Of a stretch of DNA of 64,000 bases, positions 246 to 16,308 are shown piece after piece. Below the pieces are notes generated by a model. It saw only the letters and a program-made list of their open reading frames with translations. It made no database searches and was not told where the DNA came from. Source of the DNA: an uncultured Candidatus Saccharibacteria bacterium (lineage in GTDB: Bacteria; Patescibacteriota; Minisyncoccia; RBG-13-40-8-A); contig OZ246412.1 of assembly GCA_965231075.1 (NCBI GenBank), positions 463,282 to 527,281 on the forward strand. Direction: 5' to 3'. A program made the translations under genes and the position numbers. Position 1 is the first letter of the stretch. Each line of letters begins with the position of its first letter.

Positions 246-1568
246 TTATTCCGTTAGCAATGTCAGCGTTTTGTCTTTATAAACAATTCTCGATCTTAAG
301 TTTCCGAGCAACTCTCTTTTCTCTGATACCGATCCCTCTTTTAAAATATACTTTGCGTAATTTCGTATATCCATATCTTCTCTATTTTTGACCTTATCCG
401 TGCTACCCAATACCGATCTTTGAAATATATTGAATCTTGCAATTTCATCTTCTAATTTTTGTCGCATTCCAAGTTCATTGATATTTACCCTATCCAATAT
501 CTTCAATAACTCGGCAATTAATTCTTCTTCACGAATATATTTGTTCTTACAGTTGCGATCTACACCTCGACTACAACCATAATAAATATAATGAGCTAAG
601 GTGCCATTTTTGAGCGGTTTCCATTTTTCCTCGGCTGATATGCCGGACCCGCAATAACCACACGTAAATAGCTTTGTAAAAGCGAATTCTTTGTTTTCTC
701 TAACTATCTGATCTCGTTTTAATTGCACCTTGGCTTTTTCAAACAAATCTTGAGTGATAATTGGTTCATGTTTGCCGGTATACCAATTTCCGCTTTCTTT
801 GGGATGTTCAAAAACTCCATAATAGAATGGATTATCTAATATACGATAAACTCCACTGAGCGTAAGAGGTTTATTGCCTCTTGTATAAAAATTCAATTCA
901 AATTTAAGCCAGTTATATATCTTTCTACCCGAATAATGTTCAAACGCTACTTTTTCAAACATCTTTTTAATAATCGGTGCTCGCAATGGGTCAATGATGA
1001 TCTGACACTTCTTATCCATATGTTTTTGATTCAAATATCCAAGTGGTGCCATTCCTGGCCACAATCCCATTTCTACTCTTGTTCTTAATCCTCGCTTTAC
1101 ATTAATACCCCTGTTGTCATTTTCTAATTTCGCCTGAGATCCCAAAATCATCAGCAAGAATTTCTCATTTGGATTATTACCAAATCTTTGTCCAAATGTT
1201 CGTATGTCTAAGAGGGCACCCGAATCCATTAAATCTACAATTTTTCCTAAATCGCCAGCATTCCTTGAAATACGATCCGGCGCCCAAGTGAGAATACCAT
1301 TAAATTTACCCTGTTTTAATTCTTCAATAATCTCATTGAAGACTGGCCGTTGTCCAGTTTCTTTAGCTGAGTGCGATTCTCGCTTCATTGTTACTACTTC
1401 TAAATTCTCTCTTTCAGCCAATTGAAGCATCTCTTTGATTTGGCTATCGATAGAAAGGACTTGTCGTTCCTCTGATTCTGTTGATTTCCTCGCGTAAAGA
1501 CAATATTTAATTTTCGTTGGAACTATTGTTTTGCCCGTAGTCCCCATGGGCATTTGCGCTGTATTCAT
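246..1568 (-). CDS. large serine recombinase (resolvase/invertase catalytic domain + recombinase domain + zinc ribbon)
   Basis: N-terminal YARKSTESEERQ..SIDSQ serine-recombinase catalytic motif; C-terminal CGYCGSG...YYGCS zinc-ribbon; 440 aa typical of phage/ICE large serine integrases. Confidence 0.85.
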   Translation of the reverse strand: MNTAQMPMGTTGKTIVPTKIKYCLYARKSTESEERQVLSIDSQIKEMLQLAERENLEVVTMKRESHSAKETGQRPVFNEIIEELKQGKFNGILTWAPDRISRNAGDLGKIVDLMDSGALLDIRTFGQRFGNNPNEKFLLMILGSQAKLENDNRGINVKRGLRTRVEMGLWPGMAPLGYLNQKHMDKKCQIIIDPLRAPIIKKMFEKVAFEHYSGRKIYNWLKFELNFYTRGNKPLTLSGVYRILDNPFYYGVFEHPKESGNWYTGKHEPIITQDLFEKAKVQLKRDQIVRENKEFAFTKLFTCGYCGSGISAEEKWKPLKNGTLAHYIYYGCSRGVDRNCKNKYIREEELIAELLKILDRVNINELGMRQKLEDEIARFNIFQRSVLGSTDKVKNREDMDIRNYAKYILKEGSVSEKRELLGNLRSRIVYKDKTLTLLTE

Positions 1569-1662
1569 ATACTTAATGAATGACGCAACCTATTTCGAGA
1601 GTCAAGAGCGTCCCATGTAGGCAAACTGTCGATAAATTATCTTGTGGTATTGTCCATTATTA

Positions 1663-2988
1663 CTACATCATCGGATTATCGTAAGGGTCAAAACGTTCCT
1701 CTTCTTCCTCTTCTGTGTCGTAATCATAAAAACCTGAATCATTATTTATTTTGCTCTCAATTATAGAGGCGTAACGATGAACATCGGCAGCATGAGATGT
1801 CCAATTATGATACGGAACTTCTCTAAACATATTTTTCTTATCATCCCATTCTCGTTTATATTCCGAAATGGCATTAATCCACAACGCACAATTGTTTTCA
1901 TCAACCATTAACATATTAAACGCGAATTTACCCATCTGAATGCCTTCATCAACTCCAAGTCTAGAATCAATAACGCTAAAGGATATACCAAGATCTTTAG
2001 CATAATCAATTCTCGTTTTTCCTGTACTTGTTTCTCTGGTGTTGATATCATGAGGCGCAAAATGTTTTCCGTAATTATATTCTTTTTGTTTTACTGCCAA
2101 CACGGCCTGATCGATCCCATCATTCTCGGTCCCTTGCCAATAATCAATCATATGCAACATTGCTCCGACGCGTTGATAAAATCCGATTGCCATAGCTGGA
2201 CCCACGCCTATATCCCACACAGTATGCACTTTAAATTCTTTTCTCCAAGGAACCATGCCTATACGATTATCGTTTCTTAACATCGCCAGTTCTTCTGCAT
2301 AGACCGCACCCTTAGTCGAAGCATTAAATGAGCAATAAAGCTCTTGCATAAATTCCTCGTGCGACATTGTTCTTCTGGAATTTTCTATCTCTTTCTGGCT
2401 AATGGTTCCTGTATCATCTGCCGTAAGATGGCAAGTAAACCATTCGCTATCATTCTTGTGAGTCTCATATAATAGATAGAATTCATTTCTGCCCTTTGGC
2501 GTTCCAATCCAAATACCATATCCTCCGTTATCAATAAGCGTTGGCCGAATTACTTCAGTAAAGATATTACTCGGCTGCATGCCGTATTCATCGAATACGA
2601 CCCCGCTCAAACCAATTCCTCTTAATCGATCAGGGTTTTCTGCGCCATACAATGTTATTTTTGACCCGCCAGGAAATTCTACTGATAATTCTGATTCTTT
2701 ACATTTTACTCCTGGAAATCTCGTATATCTTTTCAAAATACTCCATCCGGCGCTTTTGGCCATCTTATAGGTTGGAGCAATATACGCATAGTTAGTGCCA
2801 GGATTTTTTATTGCACTAAATATAAGATAATTTAGGGCTGCAGTTGTTTTGCCCGCACGTCGATGCACAACAAGCACCATCCAACGTTTATCGGTCTCAT
2901 GAAATGGGATTGCCCAATTTCGTGGCCGATATAGACTTAAAGATTTTTTGTCCATAAGTTTAATGTTTCTGGTTATGATTAAACTCAA
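1663..2988 (-). CDS. phage terminase large subunit-like ATPase/nuclease
   Basis: Walker A HRRAGKTTAA, Walker B hhhFDEYG (VVFDEYGM), size 441 aa, immediately downstream of a small HTH gene. Confidence 0.7.
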   Translation of the reverse strand: MSLIITRNIKLMDKKSLSLYRPRNWAIPFHETDKRWMVLVVHRRAGKTTAALNYLIFSAIKNPGTNYAYIAPTYKMAKSAGWSILKRYTRFPGVKCKESELSVEFPGGSKITLYGAENPDRLRGIGLSGVVFDEYGMQPSNIFTEVIRPTLIDNGGYGIWIGTPKGRNEFYLLYETHKNDSEWFTCHLTADDTGTISQKEIENSRRTMSHEEFMQELYCSFNASTKGAVYAEELAMLRNDNRIGMVPWRKEFKVHTVWDIGVGPAMAIGFYQRVGAMLHMIDYWQGTENDGIDQAVLAVKQKEYNYGKHFAPHDINTRETSTGKTRIDYAKDLGISFSVIDSRLGVDEGIQMGKFAFNMLMVDENNCALWINAISEYKREWDDKKNMFREVPYHNWTSHAADVHRYASIIESKINNDSGFYDYDTEEEEEERFDPYDNPMM

Positions 2989-3328
2989 CGTCTAGTGGCG
3001 TACTTATTTCGACCTTTGTTTTGTTATACTTCGGATGACACTTATTAAGACGATAAAGAACCGCCGGCCAGTATTTTTCTTTTATTAACAACAACAACTG
3101 ATGTTCGCTCATGTCGTTAATAAATTCATCGCCCTCAGCCATGGCATCTTCAACGGCCTTAGCAAATTCCGGATCTTCATTCCGCCACCGATAATAAGTG
3201 GCTTTTCCGACTCCAGCTTTCTCGCACGCCAACAACTGAATTGGGTATTTTCTCAGTTGCTCAAGTAAAATTTCTTTTTCTTTTACTTGTCTTGCTTTAA
3301 TTGTTTTTCGTTTTTTAGCGTTGTTCAT
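2960..3328 (-). CDS. small basic HTH protein, possible terminase small subunit
   Basis: 122 aa, basic N-terminus, HTH-like segment KATYYRWRNEDPEFAKAV; overlaps the start of the terminase-large-like gene (translational coupling). Confidence 0.35.
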   Translation of the reverse strand: MNNAKKRKTIKARQVKEKEILLEQLRKYPIQLLACEKAGVGKATYYRWRNEDPEFAKAVEDAMAEGDEFINDMSEHQLLLLIKEKYWPAVLYRLNKCHPKYNKTKVEISTPLDVEFNHNQKH

Positions 3329-4650
3329 ACAATTTTTTTGGCTTTTTGGCCAGTTAATTTTTCCCAGCGATATTTAATTACTTCTGTATATACTGGCGAC
3401 TTCTCCATTACATAACAACGTCGTTTCATTTTTTCGGCTGCAATTAAGGTGCTTCCCGACCCACCAAACGGTTCAACGATTAAATCATCGCGTTTGGTTA
3501 AGACTTTAATATATGGAATCAAAATCTCAATTGGCTTCGTGCCAAATACAACTCCTTGTCCGGAGTGTTTAGCATCTTCGGCGCGAAACTCGACGAAATC
3601 GCTTGGACAATATTTTTTTCCACCTTGATATTTTTCCCATTGCGGTTTGCCACTCGTTGCGTAGAGTGCTGTCTCGTATTCGTTTTGTAATAACTCTTCT
3701 TCCGGTTCAATGTTAAGTTGCTTATTTTTGGAACTTCCGACTAACGCAAAATCATATTTGTTGAAGAATTTGTATTTTGCCGAGAATCCCTGAGAACGAT
3801 TAGGCAAATGCCAAATGATCATATTCCGCACACGCCATCGTTTTTCAATTTCTGTCCAAATATGCGGAGCATTCTTCCAATACTCAAACACAATAATGCT
3901 GAAATCTTCTTTTGCAACAGTTTTTATATTCGTCATCCACTGTTCGGTAAAATTATCTGGCAATTCATCTGTTTCAAGATACCGACGATCACGTTTGTAA
4001 CCGAATCCTTTTTTTGTATTACCACGTCGCTTAATGCCCTGGAGGTATGCGAGCAAATAAGGAGGATCAGTGAACGACATATCTGCCTTTTCCCTATTCA
4101 TGAGCTTCAAGATATCTTTTTTAACAGTAGAATCTCCACACATTAAGCGGTGTGGTCCGAGCTGATACACATCGCCTTTCTTTACTTTAATCTTTTTGAT
4201 ATCCAGTTTGGCAAGTTCTTTTTCTAAATCAAACTCTTCTGCTACATCTTCGACCGCAAATATGTTGTCCAATTCTTCTGACGCAAATCCGATATCTGCC
4301 AAAAACGATTCCTTAAAATTAGTTAGCATGTCCCAGTCAAATTCTCCGGTATTTTTATTTAGTCGGATATTTAATTCTTTTTCTCTTTCAATGTCGGCAA
4401 TGTTTAAATACACAACCGGGATTTCTTTAAATTTTAATTCTTTAGCCGCCCGCAATCTCATGTGACCACCAATTACAACATTTTTTCTATTTGAAGCAAT
4501 GTTTACAATTATTGGATCAACTATTTGGAACCGCTTTATGCTTTTCTTCAGCTGTTCCATTGATTCTTTACTAATTTTTCGAGGATTATATTCGGATGGC
4601 TTAAGTTCGTTTATTGGAACATAAACGATATTTAGTTTATTATTTTGCAT
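3325..4650 (-). CDS. ParB-like nuclease domain fused to beta-class N6A/N4C DNA methyltransferase
   Basis: N-terminal ParB/Srx fold motif (NPRKISKESMEQLKKSIKRFQIVDPIIV...GGHMRLRAAKEL); C-terminal methyltransferase motif IV TDPPY followed by motif I EPFGGSGST. Confidence 0.8.
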   Translation of the reverse strand: MQNNKLNIVYVPINELKPSEYNPRKISKESMEQLKKSIKRFQIVDPIIVNIASNRKNVVIGGHMRLRAAKELKFKEIPVVYLNIADIEREKELNIRLNKNTGEFDWDMLTNFKESFLADIGFASEELDNIFAVEDVAEEFDLEKELAKLDIKKIKVKKGDVYQLGPHRLMCGDSTVKKDILKLMNREKADMSFTDPPYLLAYLQGIKRRGNTKKGFGYKRDRRYLETDELPDNFTEQWMTNIKTVAKEDFSIIVFEYWKNAPHIWTEIEKRWRVRNMIIWHLPNRSQGFSAKYKFFNKYDFALVGSSKNKQLNIEPEEELLQNEYETALYATSGKPQWEKYQGGKKYCPSDFVEFRAEDAKHSGQGVVFGTKPIEILIPYIKVLTKRDDLIVEPFGGSGSTLIAAEKMKRRCYVMEKSPVYTEVIKYRWEKLTGQKAKKIV

Positions 4651-5364: not shown

Positions 5365-5844
5365 ATGGGAAAATTAACAAATAAACTTAATCTCAAAATA
5401 CCAACATTTCTAAGGTGGATATTGTTTATTCCCGTTACTTTAATAATTTATAAAATTATTACCTTCGTAGTTTATCTCGGGGTTACTTTTTTGTTTCATT
5501 TTCTGGGCACACTGCATTGGTATCTCTTAATAATAATTCTGTTTCCTGCCGTTATCCTGCTAATAATTATTGCTGGTGGTATATGGGCTTGTTTCTATCT
5601 GGGGCTATCTCTCAGTCCTAATAAATTATTGTGCTGGCTACTCTCTGCGTGGCTTATATTCTCAGCGATTTCAACTATTCATGGATACTACTCACCAATC
5701 CCGCAGCAAGGTATTGATATTTCAATGCCCTGTTGGGCATATGTGATATTGCAAGCATATATTATTATCAGCTTAATAATGGCTGCCATTGTTAGTGGAA
5801 AAAATATTTCAAATAGAGAAGATAATAAAAATCAGGTAAAATAA
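5365..5844 (+). CDS. hypothetical polytopic membrane protein
   Basis: 159 aa, 4-5 hydrophobic helices, no recognisable motif. Confidence 0.4.
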   Translation: MGKLTNKLNLKIPTFLRWILFIPVTLIIYKIITFVVYLGVTFLFHFLGTLHWYLLIIILFPAVILLIIIAGGIWACFYLGLSLSPNKLLCWLLSAWLIFSAISTIHGYYSPIPQQGIDISMPCWAYVILQAYIIISLIMAAIVSGKNISNREDNKNQVK

Positions 5845-5848
5845 ATCT

Positions 5849-6247
5849 ATGAAGCTTTATTTTGACATTGATGGAGTTCTTATCGCACAAGGACGGAAAC
5901 CGGCTAACTATGTAGCCGAGTTTCTTAAAATAGCAACAGAGAAGCATAATTGCTATTGGCTTACAACTCATTGCAAGGATAGCTCCGAAGCTTCAATTGC
6001 GATGGATCACATTAAAGACGTCTTGCCAGCAGAAGCTATTTCTTATTGTGAACGAATTAAACCCACAGAATGGTCTCTAAAAAAAACCGAAGCAATTGAT
6101 CTTGATTCTGATTTTCTTTGGTTTGACGATGTTTCGTTTGATTTTGAAAAAGAAGTTCTATCGCAACACAATAAATCCAGCAATTTTGTGCTGGTTGATT
6201 TGATAAATAACCCCGATCAATTAAAAGAGTTAATTAAGTTATTATAG
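5849..6247 (+). CDS. hypothetical protein with HAD-like motif I (FDIDGVL)
   Basis: 132 aa; N-terminal DxDGV motif typical of HAD phosphatases, too short for a full HAD fold. Confidence 0.35.
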   Translation: MKLYFDIDGVLIAQGRKPANYVAEFLKIATEKHNCYWLTTHCKDSSEASIAMDHIKDVLPAEAISYCERIKPTEWSLKKTEAIDLDSDFLWFDDVSFDFEKEVLSQHNKSSNFVLVDLINNPDQLKELIKLL

Positions 6248-6262
6248 ATTTATAAATACTTA

Positions 6263-6291
6263 TTGACAGCAGATTTTATTTAAAATAATGT
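6263..6291 (+). promoter_or_regulatory. sigma70-like promoter (TTGACA-17-TAATGT) upstream of ORF 6493
   Basis: ttgacagcagattttatttaaaataatgt read directly; followed by a GC-rich ~110 nt leader. Confidence 0.4.
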
Positions 6292-6492
6292 AGATACATA
6301 CAATTGAATACGTTAATTATCAAGAGTGTGGCGAGAGCACTGGCTCAATGACCCACCGGCAACCCTTTAAGGCGACTCCTCAAGGAAGGTGCCAATTCCA
6401 GCTCCAAAAGGAGAAAGATAAAAGGTCGATTTTTTATTACTCTTTCTTTGTGGAAAGAGTTTTTTAATTATTAAATTAGTAAAAATAAAAAT

Positions 6493-6906
6493 ATGGAAAG
6501 TTTTGAAGAACAATTGAAACAAGGAATTCTTTATGGATTTATTCCCAAAGAGTTACAAATAGAGGGGCGTCCGGAATTAAACGTTTTTCCATTTAACGTT
6601 CTTTTTATGCGATTTAAACAAGAAGACGGGAAAACAATTTCCGGAAGCGCAGTATATGATCCAGATTTAAATTCGTTACAACAAGGCGCAGATAAATGGT
6701 CTATGCGTTACAATAACGCTTATGGTGGCGATAGTTGGCTTATAGTCGAATATGATATTGTGAGCAGGGGTTATCATGGTAAAAAATTCGTGAATGGTAA
6801 GTGCGTCGGAATAACAGATGGCCTAGAATGGAAAGGATTTTTTATACATCTCACCATATTGGGCCTATCCAATGGTGAACAATGCAGATTTGAGACTGTC
6901 GATTAA
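6493..6906 (+). CDS. hypothetical protein
   Basis: 137 aa ORF with AT-rich genome-typical codon usage; no motif recognised. Confidence 0.4.
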   Translation: MESFEEQLKQGILYGFIPKELQIEGRPELNVFPFNVLFMRFKQEDGKTISGSAVYDPDLNSLQQGADKWSMRYNNAYGGDSWLIVEYDIVSRGYHGKKFVNGKCVGITDGLEWKGFFIHLTILGLSNGEQCRFETVD

Positions 6907-7657
6907 ATTTCTCCAAAATCCAATTCAGGGACTGGAAAAAAGAGAAGAAAAGAGATATGATGAAGATGTAATGAAATCTATAAAAAACAATAGATTTATA
7001 ATTAAATCCAAGCAGAGAATCAAGGACCATGGAGAAGTATTTACTCCTGATTTTATTGTGCAAGAAATGCTTGATTTGGTAAAAAATGAAACTGAAAGGA
7101 TTGAATCCCGATTTTTGGAACCAGCTTGTGGCGATGGAAATTTTTTAGCTCCGATACTTGAGAGAAAACTTGAAGTGGTAAAGAGCAAATATAAATCAAG
7201 CCAAGTTGAATTTGAACGGAATGCTCTTTTGGCAGTGAGTAGTATTTATGGCGTTGAATTGTTGCAAGACAACGTTGTAGCGTGTATTGAGCGACTTTAT
7301 AAAATTGTTGATGAAGTATATTCAAAATTATACAAAGAAAAGTGCAGTATTGATTTTAGAAAAAGCATTCGATTTGTATTAAACAGGAATATCTTGCAAG
7401 GCAACGCGCTTGATCTAAAAACTTCTGATGGCAAAGAGCATATAGTTTTCTCCGAATGGTCACCTGCAAATGGCAGTTCAATTAAGAGAAGAGATTTTAG
7501 ATTTTTGGCTCTATCTAATTTTTATAAACCAGGCACATTGCCACTTGATTCAGTAAAAGAACTTTCAGATACCGGCGAAACCGTATTTTCCCCAATGCCG
7601 ATAAAAGAATTTCCGTTGAAACACTATCTTAAACTTGATTATGAAGATGCAAAATAA
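6872..7657 (+). CDS. N6-adenine methyltransferase-like protein lacking the catalytic NPPY/DPPY motif (methyltransferase paralog / possible partner subunit)
   Basis: motif X FTP ([13 protein letters not shown]) and motif [11 protein letters not shown] present, no motif IV anywhere in 261 aa; overlaps downstream methyltransferase gene start. Confidence 0.5.
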
Positions 7658-9137
7658 TTACAATCCGGACGTATTGTCGTGTTTAGCAAATCTTAGTAGT
7701 GATGAAGTTTTCACACCACCAAAATTAGCGAACGAAATATTAGATTTGCTTCCTCAAAAAATTTGGAAAGATAAAAACGCAACTTTTTTGGATCCGGTTT
7801 GTAAGTCGGGAGTATTCCTTCGCGAAATTGCAAGAAGATTGTTAGAGGGACTTAAAGAAGAAATCCCAGATATACAAAAACGCGTTGATCATATTTATAG
7901 GAATCAGCTTTTTGGAATAGGCATTACTGGATTGACCTCACTACTTTCTAGGCGCAGCTTGTATTGTTCAAAATCCGCTAATGGAAAATACTCTGTATCT
8001 AACACTTTTAATAATGAACAAGGTAATATTTCTTTCGAAAAGACGGAGCATGATTGGAAAAACGGAAGATGCTCTTTTTGTGGAGCTAGCCAATCAGAGT
8101 ATCAGCGTGAGAAGGGGCTCGAAACTCACGCTTATCAATTTATACATAATAAAAAACCTAATATAATAAACAATATGAAATTTGATGTAATTATAGGCAA
8201 CCCGCCTTATCAACTCGCGACAGGAGGAGCACAAGCACAAGCGACTCCCTTATATGATAAATTTGTTTTGCAGGCGAAGAAATTAAACCCACGCTTTTTA
8301 ACAATGATCATACCATCAAGATGGTTTTCAGGCGGGATGGGATTAAATGAATTTAGGGCAGAGATGTTAAAAGATACCAGAATAAGAAAATTGATTGATT
8401 ACCCAATATCATCAGAATGTTTTCCTGGTGTCGAGATTAAGGGGGGTGTATGCTATTTCCTTTGGGATAGGGAGAATAAAGGATTGTGTGAAGTTACTTC
8501 TATTAGAGGTGACAGAAAAACCATTTCTCAGAGACCCTTGTTGGAAGAGGGTCAAGACATTTTTATTAGATTTAATGAGGCATTGTCAATTTTATCTAAA
8601 GTAAAAAAACTTAAGGAAAAGTCTTTCTCCGATATCGTAAGTCCACAAAAACCTTTTGGTTTCCCAACAAATTTTAGAGGAAAAACTAAGCCATTCAAAA
8701 ACGCAGTTAAAATTTATGTCACAAAAGAAATAAATTACGTAAATAGAGAAGATATTTCTACTAATCTTGATTGGATTAATCAATATAAAATATTAATTAC
8801 CAAGGGTTATGGTGCTGGCGAAGATTACCCCCATCAGATAATTAATAAACCAATTCTAGCTGAACCAGGAAGTTGTTGTTCTGAGACTTATATTGTCTTG
8901 GGAACATTTTCAAATAAAACACAAGCTCAAAATGCAATATCCTATATAGAGACAAAATTCTTCCGATTTTTGGTGATGTTACAAAAAAACACTCAGGACG
9001 CATTGAGACGTGTTTATACTCTTGTCCCAATACAAGATTTTTCTGAATCATGGACTGACGAAAAGTTATATAAAAAATACAAATTAACAAAAGAAGAAAT
9101 TGAGTTTATTGAATCTATGATTCGTCCGATGAAATAA
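7635..9137 (+). CDS. gamma-class N6-adenine DNA methyltransferase (Eco57I/TaqI-like arrangement) with C-terminal target-recognition region
   Basis: motif X VFTPP, motif [12 protein letters not shown], motif [10 protein letters not shown] in canonical gamma order; ~300 aa C-terminal extension. Confidence 0.8.
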
Positions 9138-9138
9138 T

Positions 9139-11670
9139 ATGAGTAAAGATTTCTTTCCGCAAAAACCTGAAATTAGACCCACTATTTACGCCTATGAACT
9201 TATAGGCGTTGATTCACATAAGGGCCTGTTTAAGGTTGGCTACACTGTTCGTAATGCACAAGACAGAGTCGCCGAGCAATTAAAAACTAGCCGGCTTAAA
9301 TATAAAATTGTTCTCGAAGAATTCGCTGTTAGAAACGACGGAACTGCCTTTACAGATCATGAAGTCCATCATTATTTGAAACGTCGTAGCATTAAGAAAG
9401 AAGACGGAGAATGGTTTAAATGCACCGTAAAAGATATCAAGTCGGCTATCAATGATATAAGGAATCGAAAATTTAGTGTTGAAACGCGGGGATCAAATTT
9501 TAAAATGCGTCCAGAACAGAAGGCGGCGGTAGAAAAAACAGCAGATTATTTTGCGAGTTATAAAAAAGAAAATCCCAGTAAAACACCGCATTTTTTATGG
9601 AATGCAAAAATGCGTTTTGGTAAAACTTTTGCAACCTATCAATTGGCGAAAAAGATGGAGTGGACAAAGATTTTGGTAATGACTTTTAAGCCAGCAGTAG
9701 AAAGTGCTTGGGATGACGATTTAAAGGAACATGTTGATTTTCGAAATTGGCAATTTGTTTCAGCATCAGAGGACACGCTTTGGCATAAAGATATTAATCC
9801 CAAAAAACCGTTCGTGTGCTTCGGTTCATTTCAAGATTATTTAGGAAAAAATAAAAGCACAGGCGGTGTCAAAACAAAAAATAAGTGGGTACATAAAACT
9901 AAATGGGATTGTATTGTATTTGATGAATATCATTATGGTGCGTGGCGAGAAAATGCCAAAGAACTTTTTGAAGCAGAAGATAAAAAAGAAAAAGAATTTG
10001 CCGAGGGTCAAGGACTGGAATATTTAGACGAAAAAACATTGCCCATTGAAACGGAGGCATATTTATACCTTTCGGGGACTCCGTTTAGAGCAATAGCATC
10101 TGGCGAATTTATCGAGGAACAGATTTATAACTGGACATACTCGGACGAACAAAAAGCTAAAAATTCTTGGAATGACAAAGAAGGTTCTAATCCGTATGCC
10201 CCTCTTCCGCGCATGGTAATGATGACCTATCAACTACCGGATTCAATTCGAGATATAGCAATGCAGGGCGAATTCAATGAATTTGATTTGAACTTGTTTT
10301 TCTCTGCGGAGGGCAAGGGCAGGAATGCAAAATTTGCTTATGAGGACGAAGTTCAAAAATGGCTCGATTTGATTCGGGGTTCATTTTTAGAAACAACGAT
10401 TGACAACTTAAAGCTTGGCGCAAAAAAGCCTCCAATGCCCTTTTCTCATGCGGAACTTTTGAGTGTATTAAATCACACACTTTGGTTTTTGCCATCAGTT
10501 GCTTCGTGTCAGGCAATGTATAATTTACTAAAGAAAAAACAAAATACTTTTTATCATGATTATGAAATCATTGTGGCAGCAGGTCAGAAAGCGGGTATCG
10601 GGTTAAAAGCACTTCCGCCAGTTTTGGAAGCCATGGAAGATCCGCTGGAATCAAAAACTATTACTTTAACTTGTGGAAAGCTTTTGACTGGCGTAACCGT
10701 AAGGCCGTGGACAGGTATTTTCATGCTTCGCAATTGTTCAACTCCGGAAACATATTTTCAAGCCGCTTTCCGTGTTCAGTCTCCGTGGATCGTCAAAAAC
10801 CCGGATAACAAATCTCCGAATAAAGAAGAAATTATCAAGCAAGAGTGTTATGTCTTTGATTTTGCGCCCAATAGAGCATTGAGACAAATTGCTGAATATA
10901 GCTGTCGTCTTAACGTAAACGAATCTAATCCAGAGGCAAAAGTGGCTGAGTTTATAAGTTTTCTTCCGGTGCTTGCATATGATGGGAGTGCCATGAAACA
11001 AATCGATGCAGCGGGAATTTTAGACATGGCAATGAGTGGTACTACAGCAACACTTCTTGCGCGACGATGGGAAAGCGCCCTACTTGTAAATGTCGACAAC
11101 AATACATTAAACAGATTAATGAATGACAAAGCAGCAATGGACGCGCTCATGAGCATTGAAGGGTTTAGAAATTTGAATCAAGACATTGAGACGATTATTA
11201 ACAAATCCGAGTCTGTTGAAAAGATAAAAAGGGAGACGAACGACAAAGAGTTATCCAAAAAAGAGAAGAGAGAGCTTACCGAGGAAGAAAAAGAATACAA
11301 GAGTCTCCGCAAGCGGGTGCAGGATAAGCTTATTAAGTTTGCTACTCGCATACCCGTCTTTATGTATCTTACAGATTATCGCGAAAGAACATTAAAAGAT
11401 GTGATTACAAAACTAGAGCCTGGATTATTTAAAAAAGTTACCGGATTAACTCAAAAAGATTTCGAATTACTTGTAAGTCTCGGGGTATTCAATAGTGCAC
11501 TGATGAACGATGCGGTTTATAAGTTTAAGCGATATGAAGACGCGAGTCTTGTTTATACTGGAATAAATAAACACGAAGGTGAAAAAATAGGTCTTTATGA
11601 TACTGTGATCTCACAAGGAGAACATCGAAACGAGTCCGAAAAAATACTTATAAATAATCCGGCTGAATAA
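9139..11670 (+). CDS. T5orf172/GIY-YIG-like domain fused to SF2 (ResIII/DEAH-type) helicase; Res-like subunit
   Basis: N-terminal YAYELIGVDSHKGLFKVGYT...R motif of T5orf172/GIY-YIG superfamily; Walker A AKMRFGKT, motif II VFDEYHYGA, motif III LSGTPF, motif VI QAAFRVQS; start codon 1 nt after methyltransferase stop. Confidence 0.75.
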   Translation: MSKDFFPQKPEIRPTIYAYELIGVDSHKGLFKVGYTVRNAQDRVAEQLKTSRLKYKIVLEEFAVRNDGTAFTDHEVHHYLKRRSIKKEDGEWFKCTVKDIKSAINDIRNRKFSVETRGSNFKMRPEQKAAVEKTADYFASYKKENPSKTPHFLWNAKMRFGKTFATYQLAKKMEWTKILVMTFKPAVESAWDDDLKEHVDFRNWQFVSASEDTLWHKDINPKKPFVCFGSFQDYLGKNKSTGGVKTKNKWVHKTKWDCIVFDEYHYGAWRENAKELFEAEDKKEKEFAEGQGLEYLDEKTLPIETEAYLYLSGTPFRAIASGEFIEEQIYNWTYSDEQKAKNSWNDKEGSNPYAPLPRMVMMTYQLPDSIRDIAMQGEFNEFDLNLFFSAEGKGRNAKFAYEDEVQKWLDLIRGSFLETTIDNLKLGAKKPPMPFSHAELLSVLNHTLWFLPSVASCQAMYNLLKKKQNTFYHDYEIIVAAGQKAGIGLKALPPVLEAMEDPLESKTITLTCGKLLTGVTVRPWTGIFMLRNCSTPETYFQAAFRVQSPWIVKNPDNKSPNKEEIIKQECYVFDFAPNRALRQIAEYSCRLNVNESNPEAKVAEFISFLPVLAYDGSAMKQIDAAGILDMAMSGTTATLLARRWESALLVNVDNNTLNRLMNDKAAMDALMSIEGFRNLNQDIETIINKSESVEKIKRETNDKELSKKEKRELTEEEKEYKSLRKRVQDKLIKFATRIPVFMYLTDYRERTLKDVITKLEPGLFKKVTGLTQKDFELLVSLGVFNSALMNDAVYKFKRYEDASLVYTGINKHEGEKIGLYDTVISQGEHRNESEKILINNPAE

Positions 11671-11719: not shown

Positions 11720-12133
11720 ATGGAAAAGAAAATAACTGAAGACTTTGTTAAACATTCAATTATTAAGTGGTTATCGGCAAATAACTGGGGACATTTTCAG
11801 TTTGGCGGTTTGCACGAGCGAGGCGTTGATATTAGGGCGAAACACAATCAATATCCAATTTATTATTTTATAGAAACAAAAGGTCAAGGGAAAATTAGGC
11901 AGGCCGATGAAGTAGCATTTGTGTATTCATTAGGACAAATTATTACCAGAATGAAAACAAATAATACGAGAAATAAACATGCCTTAGGGTTGCCAGATAC
12001 AAGTGCAAAAATCGCCATCCGGCGTATTCCTTGGCAAATCGCTAAAAAGCTTTTGCTTTATGTGCTTTCCGTAGATCGCACCGGAAAAGTTAAACAATAT
12101 TCTTGGCAGGATTTAAAGAAAGTTCAGAAATAA
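11720..12133 (+). CDS. hypothetical small protein, possible PD-(D/E)xK fold
   Basis: 137 aa; GVDIRAK...YYFIETKG resembles D...ExK nuclease core; weak. Confidence 0.3.
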   Translation: MEKKITEDFVKHSIIKWLSANNWGHFQFGGLHERGVDIRAKHNQYPIYYFIETKGQGKIRQADEVAFVYSLGQIITRMKTNNTRNKHALGLPDTSAKIAIRRIPWQIAKKLLLYVLSVDRTGKVKQYSWQDLKKVQK

Positions 12134-12885
12134 AAAATTTAATCGGAAAAATTATGTTTATTTTTTTAGAGAGACAAAGAGGGAGATTGAATCAATGGTT
12201 AAAGAAAAAAACAACAATAGATTTTTCGGATTGGGGAGTTTTTATTTTATTCCTTGAAGGATTGTTTGCAATTATCTATTTAAATAAAGCCGCAAAAATC
12301 GCTGATATAATATCTGCCGTAGTCTTATGGTTTACTGCAATTGCGATATTGCAGTATACAAAGGAGACATACTGGTTGAAGCAAATACAAAACAAGCAAA
12401 TCAAAGAATTAAGAAAAAGCAGATGTTTAGAAAAAATGCCCATGATAAGAATTGTTTCTATGGACATAGAGAAGAAACCTCCAATACCCAAAGTTGATCC
12501 GTCAAGGATTCCACCAATAAAAGATAAAAATTTCTATAAAATCATTTATAAAAATATCGGAGAAGATTGGGCATTTATAAATAGCATCACAATGTGGGTA
12601 GGAAATCCGGCACCAGAAAAAGAGATCGTTTTTGAAGAACACGCATTCAAGAAAACTCTATTCAGAAACGAGGAAGATATTGTCGTTACTTACAATATAG
12701 AGAAAAAACAAAACGGCGAATTATTGCTTTTTCCCCGTAAAATAGAAATATCATTTTCTGATAGGTATGGAAATAATTTTGTTTATAAAGCCGAAAAGAT
12801 TTTACAATTGGCCGAACCAACTCCATTTTTGGGCGTTAGAGACTATATCAAAGAAGAGATACAATATCCTTCTAATTTGAGATAG
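12103..12885 (+). CDS. hypothetical membrane protein
   Basis: 260 aa, two N-terminal hydrophobic helices; true start may be internal Met near 12154. Confidence 0.35.
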   Translation: MAGFKESSEIKNLIGKIMFIFLERQRGRLNQWLKKKTTIDFSDWGVFILFLEGLFAIIYLNKAAKIADIISAVVLWFTAIAILQYTKETYWLKQIQNKQIKELRKSRCLEKMPMIRIVSMDIEKKPPIPKVDPSRIPPIKDKNFYKIIYKNIGEDWAFINSITMWVGNPAPEKEIVFEEHAFKKTLFRNEEDIVVTYNIEKKQNGELLLFPRKIEISFSDRYGNNFVYKAEKILQLAEPTPFLGVRDYIKEEIQYPSNLR

Positions 12886-12940
12886 ACGATTAACAAAAAT
12901 TTAATTTTAGAAAACAACCCCATAATAAAGTTTAAAAATC

Positions 12941-13546
12941 ATGCACAGATTTAGAAATCCATTTATAGATATCGCTACATTGGTGGCTTTAATTATCAAT
13001 ACCATTGCTTTAATTGTGGTCATTTGGCAAACCATTATTGCGAAACGATCATTGGCTGTCACCAAAAAAAGTGTTGACGACGCAAAAACGCAAAGGCAAT
13101 TAGAAGCGCTTCCAAAATTCGCATGGGTAATTGAAATACAGGTGCAGTTAGAATGTTGGAAAAAGAGTTTACAAGAAAAAAGAGATCTGCTACAAAAAGG
13201 AATAGATGAAAAAAACAATGAAATGTTTAAAAAGGCAAGCGATACCAAAATAAAGAGTTCAAAAGATTTAGCCCTCAATAGATTTCTTTATGACAATATG
13301 CCCGCTTGGTTGCGAGAATTGTGGATGTCTGGTGTTCAATATTATTATGATGCGATAGCTGCACTACCCTATGTCTATAAAGACGAAAAACCAAACCATG
13401 ATTATGCTAAAAAATGGATAAAGGAGCGGTGTGGAGATTCATTACAAGCCATTTCAAAACTATTGGAATACTTTAAAGAAATGGTGCCACCTGTGATTTT
13501 AGACACGCCAGCAAGTTTGTCCGATAAAGATTTTTTGAGAGATTAA
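12941..13546 (+). CDS. hypothetical protein with N-terminal transmembrane helix
   Basis: 201 aa, TM helix LVALIINTIALIVVIW then charged coiled-coil-like region. Confidence 0.35.
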   Translation: MHRFRNPFIDIATLVALIINTIALIVVIWQTIIAKRSLAVTKKSVDDAKTQRQLEALPKFAWVIEIQVQLECWKKSLQEKRDLLQKGIDEKNNEMFKKASDTKIKSSKDLALNRFLYDNMPAWLRELWMSGVQYYYDAIAALPYVYKDEKPNHDYAKKWIKERCGDSLQAISKLLEYFKEMVPPVILDTPASLSDKDFLRD

Positions 13547-13578
13547 AGAGTGGAAAATAATAATAAAAAAATAAATTT

Positions 13579-14109
13579 ATGGATCAACTTAGTGGATTAT
13601 TTGGAAAATTGTTATTGTATTTGGGGCCAATTTTTATTGTGGCCTTAATAATTAAATATTTATTGCCAGAATTAATTAAGGCATTCAAGATAAGGAAGAA
13701 ATTTAAAGCTGGGCAAAAATGGAGTTCAGAAAAAGATTTAATTTATTGGTTGCGAGGAATGAAACCGTGGGAGTTTGAGGAATACATTTCTGGACTATTT
13801 TCAAAATTAGGTTATAAAATAGAAAAAGTCGGTGGAGGATATGATAAAGGAGTCGATGTTATTGCAGAGAAAAATGGAATTAAACACTATATCCAATGCA
13901 AGAAATACATAACTTCTGAAGTTGGAGTTGGCGAGGTTAGAGATTTTTATGGCGCAATTGCCGATCATTTGGCCCAAGGCAAGGGTTATTTCATAACCAC
14001 GAACAAATTCACCTTAGAAGCAGAAAAATTCGCTGAAAGCAAGCCAATCGAACTAATTGATTCTTATGGACTACTAAAGTATATTAAATTGGCAGAAGAT
14101 AAAAAATAA
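13579..14109 (+). CDS. membrane-anchored Mrr-like restriction endonuclease (Mrr_cat domain)
   Basis: N-terminal TM helix then YDKGVDVIAEK...IQCKKY (PD-(D/E)xK of Mrr family), GAIADHLAQGKGYFITT typical downstream segment. Confidence 0.65.
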   Translation: MDQLSGLFGKLLLYLGPIFIVALIIKYLLPELIKAFKIRKKFKAGQKWSSEKDLIYWLRGMKPWEFEEYISGLFSKLGYKIEKVGGGYDKGVDVIAEKNGIKHYIQCKKYITSEVGVGEVRDFYGAIADHLAQGKGYFITTNKFTLEAEKFAESKPIELIDSYGLLKYIKLAEDKK

Positions 14110-14111
14110 AA

Positions 14112-14798
14112 ATGCAAAAATTAGATAGAACGAAATATATTAGTGGAAAAAATCTCGGTGAATTGGCATTACAAAAATTTTGTCCAAGGTGTTTTTGGTT
14201 AAAAAGACACATTGGAGATACGCCGGGCGGTTTTCCTGGCATATTCTCCACTATCGATAGTTTAACCAAAAGAAGCACAAAGAGATCTTTTGATTCTAAA
14301 AATATTCCTCCACTTTGGTTAAAAATAAATGGTCTCAAAAAGGTTTTATCTGTTCCCAAGATAAAAGTTGATATGAGTGAGCATGGCGGATGGATTTTAA
14401 CTGGTGCCATTGATGATGCCTTTTTGAGAGATGACGGGACAGTGCATATCGTAGACTATAAGACCGCAAAGCATACAAAGACACAAGACGAATTACGACC
14501 AGAATACGATGTTCAATTAAATGCCTATGCACTTGCTTTACAAAAAATGGGGATTGGAAAGGTATCTCGTTTGTCTTTGATCTATTGCGAACCTAGTGAA
14601 AATTTAGATTCTGATAGTGATTTTAAATTATCTTTTAGTACACATATTGAAGATGTTGAAATAAACCCCGACCTTGTTCCCAAACTTCTGATTAAGGCAA
14701 GAAATATTTTAAATGCCGATATTCCCAATTCTATTGAAAAATGTACTGGTATTTGTTCGTGGATAGAAAAATACGACGTCAAAATGAGTAATTTATAA
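14112..14798 (+). CDS. Cas4/RecB-like PD-(D/E)xK nuclease with Cys cluster
   Basis: N-terminal CPRC, core GAIDDAF...VHIVDYKTAKH, C-terminal CTGICSW; architecture of Cas4/Dna2-type Fe-S nucleases; no CRISPR array nearby. Confidence 0.6.
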   Translation: MQKLDRTKYISGKNLGELALQKFCPRCFWLKRHIGDTPGGFPGIFSTIDSLTKRSTKRSFDSKNIPPLWLKINGLKKVLSVPKIKVDMSEHGGWILTGAIDDAFLRDDGTVHIVDYKTAKHTKTQDELRPEYDVQLNAYALALQKMGIGKVSRLSLIYCEPSENLDSDSDFKLSFSTHIEDVEINPDLVPKLLIKARNILNADIPNSIEKCTGICSWIEKYDVKMSNL

Positions 14799-14799
14799 A

Positions 14800-16308
14800 A
14801 TGAACGACGATTTATTGCAAAAATTAAAAGTCTGGAGACAAAACATGGTCAACATTGAAAAAGTTGAACCATTTCGAATTTTTACAAACAAAACATTGGA
14901 AAATATTGCAGAAATAAAACCATCAAACCGAGAGGAGCTGATGGCTATAAAGGGTATCAAAGATAGAAAATTTGCAAAATATGGAGAAAAGATTCTATCT
15001 ATAATCAATAATGGTGAAGAGTATCCAGAATTATTTAATAGTTCTCCAAACAAGCAACCCGACAAACCACTGTCTGTTAGTGCGTATATAGATTTGTTGA
15101 ATCATCAACTGAGCAAGTGTAGTGCCAGAATTAAGGGGGAAATTAGTAGTGTAGACACAAGAGATCGAGTTATATATTTCTCGCTCAAAGATTCAGACGA
15201 TGAGAGTATTATTAATTGTTTAATTTGGAAACGCGATTATAATTTGAGTGGCATTGAATTTGAGGTGGGCATGGAAGTTATTCTTGAAGGAACGCCCGAC
15301 ATGTACAAACCAACTGGTCGACTGTCGTTTAAGGCCTCATCGGTTGAGTTGGTTGGAGAGGGTGCCCTTAAAAAAGCATATGATCAATTGAAAAAGAAAC
15401 TCACCGCTGAAGGATTATTGTTAAAGGAGAGAAAAAGAGAAATTCCCAACCTTCCCCAAAAAATCGGAATAATTACTTCTCGACAAGGAGCAGTTTTAGC
15501 GGATTTCTTAAGTAATATTGGCCATTATGGTTTTAAAATTAAAATGATTGATTCTAGAGTCGAAGGACAGTCAGCTGTCACAGATTTACTGTCAGCCATT
15601 AAAACCATCAAGAAAAAAAATATTGAAGTTTTAGTTATCATGAGGGGCGGCGGTTCTTTTGAATCATTGCAGCCATTTAATAATGAATTATTAATTAGAG
15701 AGATTGTAAATTTTCCCGTTCCGGTAATTGCGGCAATTGGTCACGACAAAGACATGCCATTAGTTTCTTTGGTTGCAGACCTTGAAGTTTCCACGCCAAG
15801 CATTGCCGCCATTACGCTCAGCAAATCATGGAGGGAAGCCATTATGTTTTTAGAAAAGCATGAAAGAAGTATATTTGATAATTATGGAAATAACATAAAA
15901 AATACACACGACTTAATAAGTCAATCAATCGAGATAACTCGAGAATCCAGCGAATCTATTATCAAAAAATATAAAGATATTAAAAATAATTTTAGAGTCT
16001 CGGTCCAAATTTTTAAAAACACTTTATTAAATATTAAAGATGGTTTAACAGATTTTTGTAGCAAAACATTATTCGGTTTTAGCGGATTAGTTAAGAGAGG
16101 GTATCAACAACTGGAAAAATCGAGAAGCATTATCTCCGCGCATAATCCAGAACGACAATTGAGCCTGGGATACAGCATAGCTAGCATTGACGGCAAGATA
16201 GTTAAAAGCGTAAAAGATGCCACCGCGGGAAACAACATAAATTTAATGGTTACCGACGGAACGATTATTTCACAAATTAAAAATATAAATAAGAAATTAA
16301 TAAAATAA
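14800..16308 (+). CDS. xseA: exodeoxyribonuclease VII large subunit with N-terminal HRDC domain fusion
   Basis: residues ~1-80 match the HRDC pattern (LQKLKVWRQN..EPFRIFTNKTLENIAEIKPSNREELMAIKGIKDRKFAKYGEKIL); rest matches XseA (IGIITSRQGAVLADFL, VIMRGGGSFESL, AIGHDKD). Confidence 0.85.
   Translation: MNDDLLQKLKVWRQNMVNIEKVEPFRIFTNKTLENIAEIKPSNREELMAIKGIKDRKFAKYGEKILSIINNGEEYPELFNSSPNKQPDKPLSVSAYIDLLNHQLSKCSARIKGEISSVDTRDRVIYFSLKDSDDESIINCLIWKRDYNLSGIEFEVGMEVILEGTPDMYKPTGRLSFKASSVELVGEGALKKAYDQLKKKLTAEGLLLKERKREIPNLPQKIGIITSRQGAVLADFLSNIGHYGFKIKMIDSRVEGQSAVTDLLSAIKTIKKKNIEVLVIMRGGGSFESLQPFNNELLIREIVNFPVPVIAAIGHDKDMPLVSLVADLEVSTPSIAAITLSKSWREAIMFLEKHERSIFDNYGNNIKNTHDLISQSIEITRESSESIIKKYKDIKNNFRVSVQIFKNTLLNIKDGLTDFCSKTLFGFSGLVKRGYQQLEKSRSIISAHNPERQLSLGYSIASIDGKIVKSVKDATAGNNINLMVTDGTIISQIKNINKKLIK

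Follow-up and report, generated by a model that had tools for sequence, protein, structure and literature searches.

A methyltransferase-like protein without catalytic motif IV, identified by homology as the M1 subunit of a DrdVI-type restriction-modification system in a Saccharibacteria genome

What is the role of a protein that carries the cofactor-binding motifs of a DNA methyltransferase but not the catalytic one, and whose gene overlaps that of a methyltransferase which has it? The question is raised by an open reading frame (ORF) at positions 6872-7657 of a 64,000-nucleotide stretch of contig OZ246412.1 (positions 463,282 to 527,281 of the forward strand, from now on referred to as the window), which belongs to the assembly GCA_965231075.1 of an uncultured Candidatus Saccharibacteria bacterium. 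A preliminary description of the locus had offered three answers: an inactive regulatory or structural partner of the downstream methyltransferase, a remnant of a tandem duplication, or the product of a frameshift that split a longer methyltransferase. Based on homology to three consecutive genes of plasmid pDrdVI, found in the same order, the ORF is the M1 gene of a DrdVI-type Type IIG restriction-modification (R-M) system, a system of a known kind of which this copy is new. We propose, with a probability of roughly 80%, that its product is a required M1 subunit that would bind S-adenosylmethionine (AdoMet). The partner option comes closest to this proposal, M1 being a conserved and separately translated subunit of the downstream methyltransferase, M2.

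Motifs and predicted fold of M1

The M1 gene and the elements recognized in it are the following (motif numbering as for gamma-class methyltransferases, residues counted on the 261-amino acid (aa) ORF).

6872-7657, + strand: M1 gene (ORF A), 261-aa ORF starting with ATG; probable true start at ATG 6971 (228 aa)
7040-7048, + strand: motif X, FTP within GEVFTP, residues 57-59
7118-7147, + strand: motif I, a 10-residue loop with canonical G-x-G, residues 83-92
7244-7258, + strand: motif II, IYGVE, with the acidic residue that ends strand β2
7388-7411, + strand: motif III, NILQGNAL
7448-7459, + strand: FSEW strand of a β-hairpin
7647-7657, + strand: overlap of the M1 stop codon (TAA, 7655-7657) with the M2 start (ATG 7647), a translational-coupling junction

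Both motifs X and I, which had been noted before, could be located in the 261-aa protein, while motifs II and III had been overlooked and proved to be present and conserved as well. Among 154 unique homologs, motif X reads GEV[FYLN]T in 153, motif I reads EP[AST]CG.G.F in 151, motif II reads [YF][GA][IVL][DE] in all 154 and motif III reads N[ILVM]..G[DN] in 152. Motif I of M1 aligns to the segment DPACGCGNFL of MmeI (PDB 5hr4), motif III aligns to the NANAL region of the same protein, and the M1 family profile aligns to MmeI across motifs I-III. Further, M1 is matched by the PADLOC model MTase_II (E-value 1.8e-11) and by the Pfam family MmeI_Mtase (E-value 3.7e-5, N-terminal part only). By these alignments, the resemblance of M1 to methyltransferases is far beyond chance. 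Following motif III, the AlphaFold2 (AF2) model of M1 contains strands at residues 159-165 and 170-177, and FSEW, one strand of the β-hairpin, is invariant in two homolog alignments.

As had been observed before, the catalytic loop is missing. A search for the pattern [NDS]PP[YFW] in the M1 protein and in all three forward frames of the region gave no match, and the 154 unique homologs all lack it as well. M1 ends ahead of strands β4-β7 of the class I fold and has no target-recognition domain (TRD). It consists of motifs X, I, II and III, the β-hairpin and a short conserved tail; of the hallmarks of an active gamma-class N6-adenine methyltransferase, ORF A shows the AdoMet-binding motifs and lacks motif IV as well as the full fold with its TRD. 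By its sequence, M1 is a free-standing N-terminal AdoMet-binding half of an MmeI/Eco57I-like gamma-class N6-adenine methyltransferase. Since it has neither a (N/D)PP(Y/F) loop nor a TRD, M1 would be unable to methylate DNA alone.

M1 might nevertheless be an active methyltransferase, either with unconventional catalytic residues, for example the invariant FSEW, or with a substrate other than DNA. Its cofactor motifs are intact and FSEW follows a β-strand like motif IV does. We consider this very improbable. To our knowledge, (D/N/S)PP(Y/F/W) is used by all known exocyclic-amine methyltransferases, and M1 stops before the second half of the fold is reached. A realignment for an overlooked motif IV brought none to light. 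FSEW itself was rejected as a divergent motif IV because four single-chain relatives (P0188, P0190, P0197 and P0210) have both the equivalent F(S/T)EW hairpin and, after it, an authentic motif IV, FDVI(I/V)GNPPY. FSEW would thus be a lookalike and not the catalytic loop.

The DrdVI-type cassette and the M1 family

M1 is followed by two genes on the same strand, giving the order M1 (6971-7657), M2 (7647-9137) and R (9139-11670).

7647-9137, + strand: M2 gene (ORF B), Eco57I-family N6-adenine methyltransferase with a variable TRD (Pfam Eco57I, E-value 1e-35)
7791-7820, + strand: non-canonical motif I region of M2, 10 residues, of the K[ST]G type
8199-8210, + strand: NPPY of M2, catalytic motif IV, within an 11-residue stretch
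9139-11670, + strand: R gene (ORF C), with a T5orf172/MUG113 (GIY-YIG-type) nuclease domain at about 9208-9459 and a superfamily 2 (SF2)/ResIII translocase from about 9499 (Pfam)

A tblastn search against plasmids identified a match to pDrdVI of Deinococcus wulumuqiensis NEB 479. M1 of the window shares 42% identity over 211 aa (E-value 6e-52) with the 212-aa protein in the M1 position of pDrdVI, M2 shares 51% identity over 522 aa with the 539-aa Eco57I-family protein in the M2 position, and R shares 56% identity over 845 aa with the protein in the DrdVI position. The window therefore encodes the complete DrdVI-type set, namely, an M1 homolog, an adjoining Eco57I-family M2 with NPPY, and an R protein combining a GIY-YIG-type nuclease with an SF2 translocase.

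DrdVI is described in REBASE papers as a "split methylase" Type IIG system. According to the literature, co-expressed M1 and M2 of DrdVI produce N6-methyladenine (m6A) at GCAGCC, and the co-expressed pair of MaeIV from Methanococcus aeolicus produces m6A at GCACY. As GCAGCC contains adenine in one strand only, this site would be marked on one strand only. A GIY-YIG endonuclease domain is described for the relative of DrdVI from Bibersteinia trehalosi, and the same paper mentions a gene that is M1-like N-terminally and M2-like C-terminally (PMC4996451). The gene order of the window recurs in DrdVI and MaeIV, where M1 measures about 215 aa, the Eco57I-type M2 about 500-540 aa and the nuclease-translocase about 850 aa, and the pattern of motifs in DrdVI-type M1 and M2 is that of the window. 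The window copy differs from DrdVI in that it resides in a low-GC genome, with closest relatives of Patescibacteria type, has a different TRD region and is known here from sequence alone.

Other systems resemble the cassette in part. In DnmA-YeeB-YeeC of Bacillus subtilis and Vibrio crassostreae, an MmeI-like gamma-class adenine methyltransferase acting on an asymmetric site has an SF2 helicase and a T5orf172 protein as neighbors within mobile defense islands. However, this methyltransferase is a single MmeI-type chain without M1, helicase and T5orf172 protein are separate, and the likeness is drawn without a sequence-level comparison of orthology; the literature found on T5orf172 together with Eco57I offers only this analogy. 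The Type ISP enzymes LlaGI and LlaBIII and the fused helicase-methyltransferases of Lactococcus and Enterococcus plasmids share with the window the combination of nuclease, SF2 translocase and TRD-containing gamma-class methyltransferase, and act on an asymmetric site of which one strand is modified. In contrast to the window, a Type ISP enzyme consists of one polypeptide, has a nuclease of the Mrr type and lacks M1. The 1452-aa fusion protein encoded on the Lactococcus plasmid pCV56A keeps a separate M1-like gene upstream, and its methyltransferase N-terminal half (N-half) is of the K-T-G type. PADLOC model PDLC03626 (1359 aa) likewise spans both R and M2 of the window.

Methyltransferases made of two chains are also known outside this group. 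In M.AquI, M.EcoHK31I (alpha/beta) and METTL3-METTL14, either the motifs are split over two chains or an active subunit is joined by a degenerate paralog. M.AquI and M.EcoHK31I are C5-cytosine enzymes whose fragments are non-repeated portions of a single fold. Unlike in these enzymes, M2 carries a second, altered copy of the part represented by M1.

The M1 family is large and widely distributed. More than 120 clusters at 68-86% identity to M1 were found in a word-indexed protein search, and a profile search of 1.84 billion representatives (50% identity level) returned 4445 matches, 675 of them at E-values of 1e-30 or below and nearly all of these 200-240 aa long. A scan using one genome per species identified at least 541 stretches encoding an M1 relative, distributed over Patescibacteria, Cyanobacteria, Spirochaetes, Bacteroidota, Proteobacteria, Chloroflexota, Actinobacteria, Planctomycetes, Firmicutes and one archaeal metagenome-assembled genome. 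The family also occurs on plasmids and in a gut phage: a human gut Caudoviricetes phage (NatCom_35866, L098) carries a complete M1-M2-R cassette. A megablast of the window's cassette against phage records gave no match. A more distant resemblance was observed in Aeromonas phage Aeh1 (ORF084c, L180) and about 30 other Aeromonas T4-like phages, which encode a 415-aa protein with a C-terminal stretch resembling M1 motifs X-II (34% identity); this protein could be a phage methyltransferase fragment or a counter-defense protein.

The three genes are usually found together. The order of M1, an M2 of about 500 aa and an R of about 840 aa is present in more than 150 loci from many phyla, including nearly every sufficiently long locus among the 80 genome loci found with M1. 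Conversely, when metagenomes were searched with M2, M1 lay directly upstream in 73 of the 74 loci with adequate upstream DNA. In the sole M2-found locus without M1, its position is taken by a 321-aa ORF (L138:613-1578) with EVFTP and LEITCGEAPYL, whose product also looks like a methyltransferase N-half but is distinct from M1 and more divergent. In another locus (L176), two tandem copies of M2 follow a single M1.

Comparison with the family also bears on the limits of the gene. The ORF exists at 6872-7657, however, its true start is probably ATG 6971 (M34, 228 aa), because homologs, at 213-240 aa (median 223), are shorter than the ORF and their alignment to it sets in near residue 39. The best-scoring 119 homologs are all 192-232 aa long once the window's own 261-aa entry is excepted. 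A start at 6971 also abolishes a 35-nucleotide (nt) overlap with the unrelated ORF 6493-6906. At the other end, the reported overlap with the downstream methyltransferase gene holds. M2 could start at TTG 7635, ATG 7641 or ATG 7647, of which 7647 is most likely judging from the N-termini of M2 homologs, giving an overlap of 11 nt; the two earlier starts would extend it to 17-23 nt. An overlap between the M1 and M2 ORFs, of 4-104 nt and mostly of 4-23 nt, is shared by 115 of 127 related loci.

These data bear on the suggestion that M1 is a functionless pseudogene fragment, left behind by a recent frameshift, a truncation or a tandem duplication of a longer methyltransferase. Such an origin would fit the absence of motif IV and TRD, the homology to the neighboring gene product in its N-half and the existence of single-chain relatives. 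Yet the ratio of nonsynonymous to synonymous substitution rates (dN/dS) of M1 is about 0.11 at a dS of about 0.96 for the two closest non-saturated orthologs, compared with 0.07-0.16 for the neighboring methyltransferase, motifs I, II and III are retained in 151-154 of the 154 unique homologs, and both a stable length of 213-240 aa and the C-terminal tail are conserved across phyla. M1 is also present immediately upstream of M2, usually with the short overlap, in all but one of the M2-found loci, and the homologous DrdVI and MaeIV pairs belong to active modification systems. The pseudogene explanation is refuted by the conservation data, and we regard it as scarcely credible. By these comparisons, the M1 family of about 220 aa is under purifying selection. 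Between close relatives, M1 is even better conserved than M2 (82% versus 63% identity).

The proposed frameshift fares no better. Protein-level conservation in its own frame is seen both for the tail of M1 and for the N-terminus of M2, a separate motif X/I region is present in M2, and the two-gene arrangement extends across phyla. A recent frameshift at 7630-7660 was rejected, both frames being conserved at the protein level and the same junction architecture being found in more than 110 loci. As for a remnant of a tandem duplication, the homology to the N-half of M2 that this idea calls for is real (32% identity over 88 aa, E-value 5e-8), whereas decay is contradicted by the low dN/dS, the retained motifs and the constant presence of M1. 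As judged from these patterns, M1 arose by ancient partition or duplication and not by frameshift.

Relationship between M1 and M2

How M1 and M2 would share the work of one enzyme can be approached through the motifs of M2. Motif I has no G-x-G in any of 143 unique M2 sequences and reads K[ST]G in 141 of them, so that an invariant Lys occupies the place of the first Gly of G-x-G. The acidic residue after β2 is likewise absent from the 139 of 143 sequences in which the motif could be located, where the position reads A/G/S-I-T. M2 does retain motif X (DEVFTPP) and an invariant G-N, possibly motif III. A cluster of Cys and His residues (C-H-C-C, residues 107, 135, 142 and 145) is inserted before motif IV and is invariant or nearly so, which suggests a zinc site between motifs II and IV. 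The AF2 model of M2 (predicted local distance difference test score (pLDDT) 78.8) shows a complete gamma-methyltransferase fold with TRD, whose nearest structures according to Foldseek are CamA, BrxX/PglX, M.TaqI and M.BseCI. Two invariant M2 segments, residues 1-19 (7647-7703) and 92-116 (7920-7994), have pLDDT values below 50 in the monomer model and are possible candidates for partner interfaces. At the sequence level, a single-sequence search of the PDB with M2 returned nothing at E-values of 0.1 or below, and a profile search matched the motif IV region alone, to Type I HsdM.

Single-chain Eco57I-family relatives illustrate how an M1-type half can be used. Five of the 150 best-scoring representatives listed (P0188, P0190, P0197, P0210 and P0252) are single chains whose N-half matches the M1 profile with E-values of 1e-50 to 1e-57, and M1 is much closer to these than to the N-half of M2. 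In four of them, motif IV and an M2-like C-terminal half (C-half) come straight after the M1-like region, which contains the F(S/T)EW hairpin; P0252 is without the hairpin. All five have one canonical N-half and no second N-half of the K[ST]G type. Single uninterrupted ORFs in related genomes had been put forward earlier as the sign of a simple pseudogene; this expectation is not borne out, the five chains having an M1-type N-half and not being a read-through of M1 and M2. In P0190 (580 aa), all of M1 including the tail is followed by E.A.YQ, the closing residues of the M2 N-half, and motif IV comes next. This chain has the appearance of an in-frame deletion-fusion between M1 and M2 in which M2 residues of about 1-155 were lost. 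Btr188ORF1790 of B. trehalosi, which resembles M1 in its N-terminal and M2 in its C-terminal part, has the same layout as the single-chain relatives. When P0188 was compared with plasmids, 11 of the 12 matches listed were split M1 and M2 pairs, while in the remaining case, H41 on a Mycolicibacterium plasmid, the match was in one piece (31% identity).

Pairwise distances were compared across 84 non-redundant loci containing all three genes, the sequences being related to each other. For M1, the correlation is r 0.84 with R and r 0.72 with the M2 N-half (partial r 0.30). From motif IV of M2 onwards, the correlation is 0.22, falling to about 0, with a partial r of -0.01. A sliding window on M2 gives r of about 0.4-0.65 up to residue 200, 0.22 across motif IV (about residue 187), about 0.1 just past it and about 0-0.26 from there to the C-terminus. 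The drop is not a matter of saturation, since it includes the well-conserved segment 201-260. Based on this break at motif IV, the half of M2 comprising the catalytic loop and TRD appears to have a history separate from that of M1, the M2 N-half and R, which move together. This fits the higher conservation of M1 relative to M2 and the fact that a PADLOC model covers only residues 180-499 of M2. Most simply, the pattern would reflect recombinational exchange of a specificity cassette between systems.

We hypothesize the following mechanism for the DrdVI-type system of the window. M1 would be made together with M2 via their overlapping genes, bind AdoMet and form an obligate complex with M2, and probably also with R. 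AdoMet binding by M1 is suggested by the fact that its invariant residues are exactly those of the cofactor motifs. The M1-M2 pair would then place m6A on one strand of a short asymmetric site, while R, judging from its GIY-YIG-type nuclease and SF2 translocase domains, would cut unmodified DNA.

Several points weigh against a required cofactor-binding role of M1. No experiment on M2 without M1 was found in the DrdVI literature, and "split methylase" is a label given by REBASE. The modeled M2 fold is complete with its own β1, β2 and β4 and has no evident slot for M1 in its Rossmann sheet. Further, M2 may bind AdoMet unaided, given its motif X and invariant G-N and the example of M.TaqI, which does without the first Gly of motif I. 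M1 has no residual covariation with the catalytic half of M2, which a shared active site would be likelier to show. Lastly, half a Rossmann fold may be an unstable AdoMet binder alone, and the C-terminal third of the M1 model has pLDDT values of only 56-73.

Some of these observations would be accommodated if M2 were self-sufficient and M1 a non-catalytic AdoMet sensor or adaptor coupling M2 to R, for example by licensing or restraining the nuclease-translocase according to cofactor level. AdoMet is an allosteric effector of Type I and Type III enzymes and of many Type IIG enzymes. The complete predicted fold of M2 and its remaining cofactor-associated motifs would be explained, as would the finding that M1 distances agree best with R and to a lesser extent with the M2 N-half. 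Pfam domain searches found no cofactor-binding domain in R itself, and M1 is kept beside fused helicase-methyltransferases on Lactococcus and Enterococcus plasmids. On the other hand, K[ST]G in nearly all M2 sequences and the missing motif II acid are hard to square with normal AdoMet binding by M2, the single-chain relatives use an M1-type N-half for catalysis, the REBASE authors treat M1 and M2 as one split enzyme, and the correlation analysis is confounded by recombination and shared descent. Taken as a whole, the sensor function is possible but rather unlikely.

Within the proposal of a required AdoMet-binding M1 subunit, the two kinds of role are thus argued from different evidence: the complementary motifs of M1 and M2, the single-chain and fusion forms and the REBASE label "split" speak for supply of the cofactor, while the complete predicted M2 fold, its motif X and G-N, and the absent covariation speak for an adaptor or sensor. 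At odds near even, we give a slight preference to an M1 that provides or gates the cofactor site for M2 over one that is purely an adaptor. A more far-reaching and rather doubtful version holds that the system consists of three modules with separate histories, in which M1 is the sole canonical AdoMet module, the M2 N-half a conserved pseudo-cofactor half co-evolving with M1 and R, and the M2 C-half a portable specificity cassette. If true, M1 would deliver the cofactor in trans to the NPPY of M2 or compete with the M2 N-half as a cofactor-dependent switch between modification and restriction, an arrangement that would be undescribed for any R-M enzyme.

Surroundings of the cassette and implications

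To define the gene content of the loci, every ORF of the fetched loci was searched with the window proteins. ORFs flanking the cassette in the window (5365-6906 and 11720-14109) have no homologs beside the cassette in about 170 other loci, except for a generic Mrr match, and were rejected as extra system components. Neighbors of the cassette vary between loci. About 20 loci have extra genes within the cassette, in the gaps between M1 and M2 or M2 and R (among them L015, L016, L017, L019, L024, L025, L028, L031, L032, L034, L049, L050, L059, L060, L071 and L081). As assigned by reading their sequences, the inserted genes encode DUF1016/YhcG-like PDDEXK proteins (8 ORFs in 7 loci), Bro-N/RhuM-like proteins (5 loci), GxxExxY-like and Fic proteins, a PIN toxin-antitoxin pair and IS200-like transposases. 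Hitchhiker genes of this sort are frequent inside type I R-M operons.

A phage-like module at window positions 246-4650 (minus strand) directly precedes the cassette, and three nuclease-related ORFs lie downstream.

246-1568, - strand: large serine recombinase
1663-2988, - strand: terminase large subunit
2960-3328, - strand: helix-turn-helix ORF resembling a small terminase
3325-4650, - strand: fusion of ParB_N and N6_N4 methyltransferase
13579-14109, downstream: Mrr_cat nuclease with a hydrophobic N-terminus
14112-14798, downstream: PD-(D/E)XK protein
14800-16308, downstream: unusual fusion of HRDC, OB-fold and exonuclease VII large subunit

In L001 and L008-L012, too, the cassette has serine recombinases at its flanks. 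Their occurrence next to the cassette both in the window and in other loci suggests that it resides within a mobile island.

For the annotation of genomes, "M1 subunit, DrdVI-type R-M system" would be an apt name for the protein, whereas it is misleading to label it "SAM-dependent DNA methyltransferase", "restriction endonuclease subunit M", "hypothetical protein" or a pseudogene. Although the family is very widespread, the role of M1 is not addressed in the literature found on DrdVI. The present analysis goes beyond that literature in three respects: M1 has cofactor motifs without a catalytic motif, M2 combines NPPY and a TRD with a non-canonical N-half, and the history of M2 breaks at motif IV. 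The complementary motifs of the two proteins together with this break open the role of M1 to direct experimental testing.

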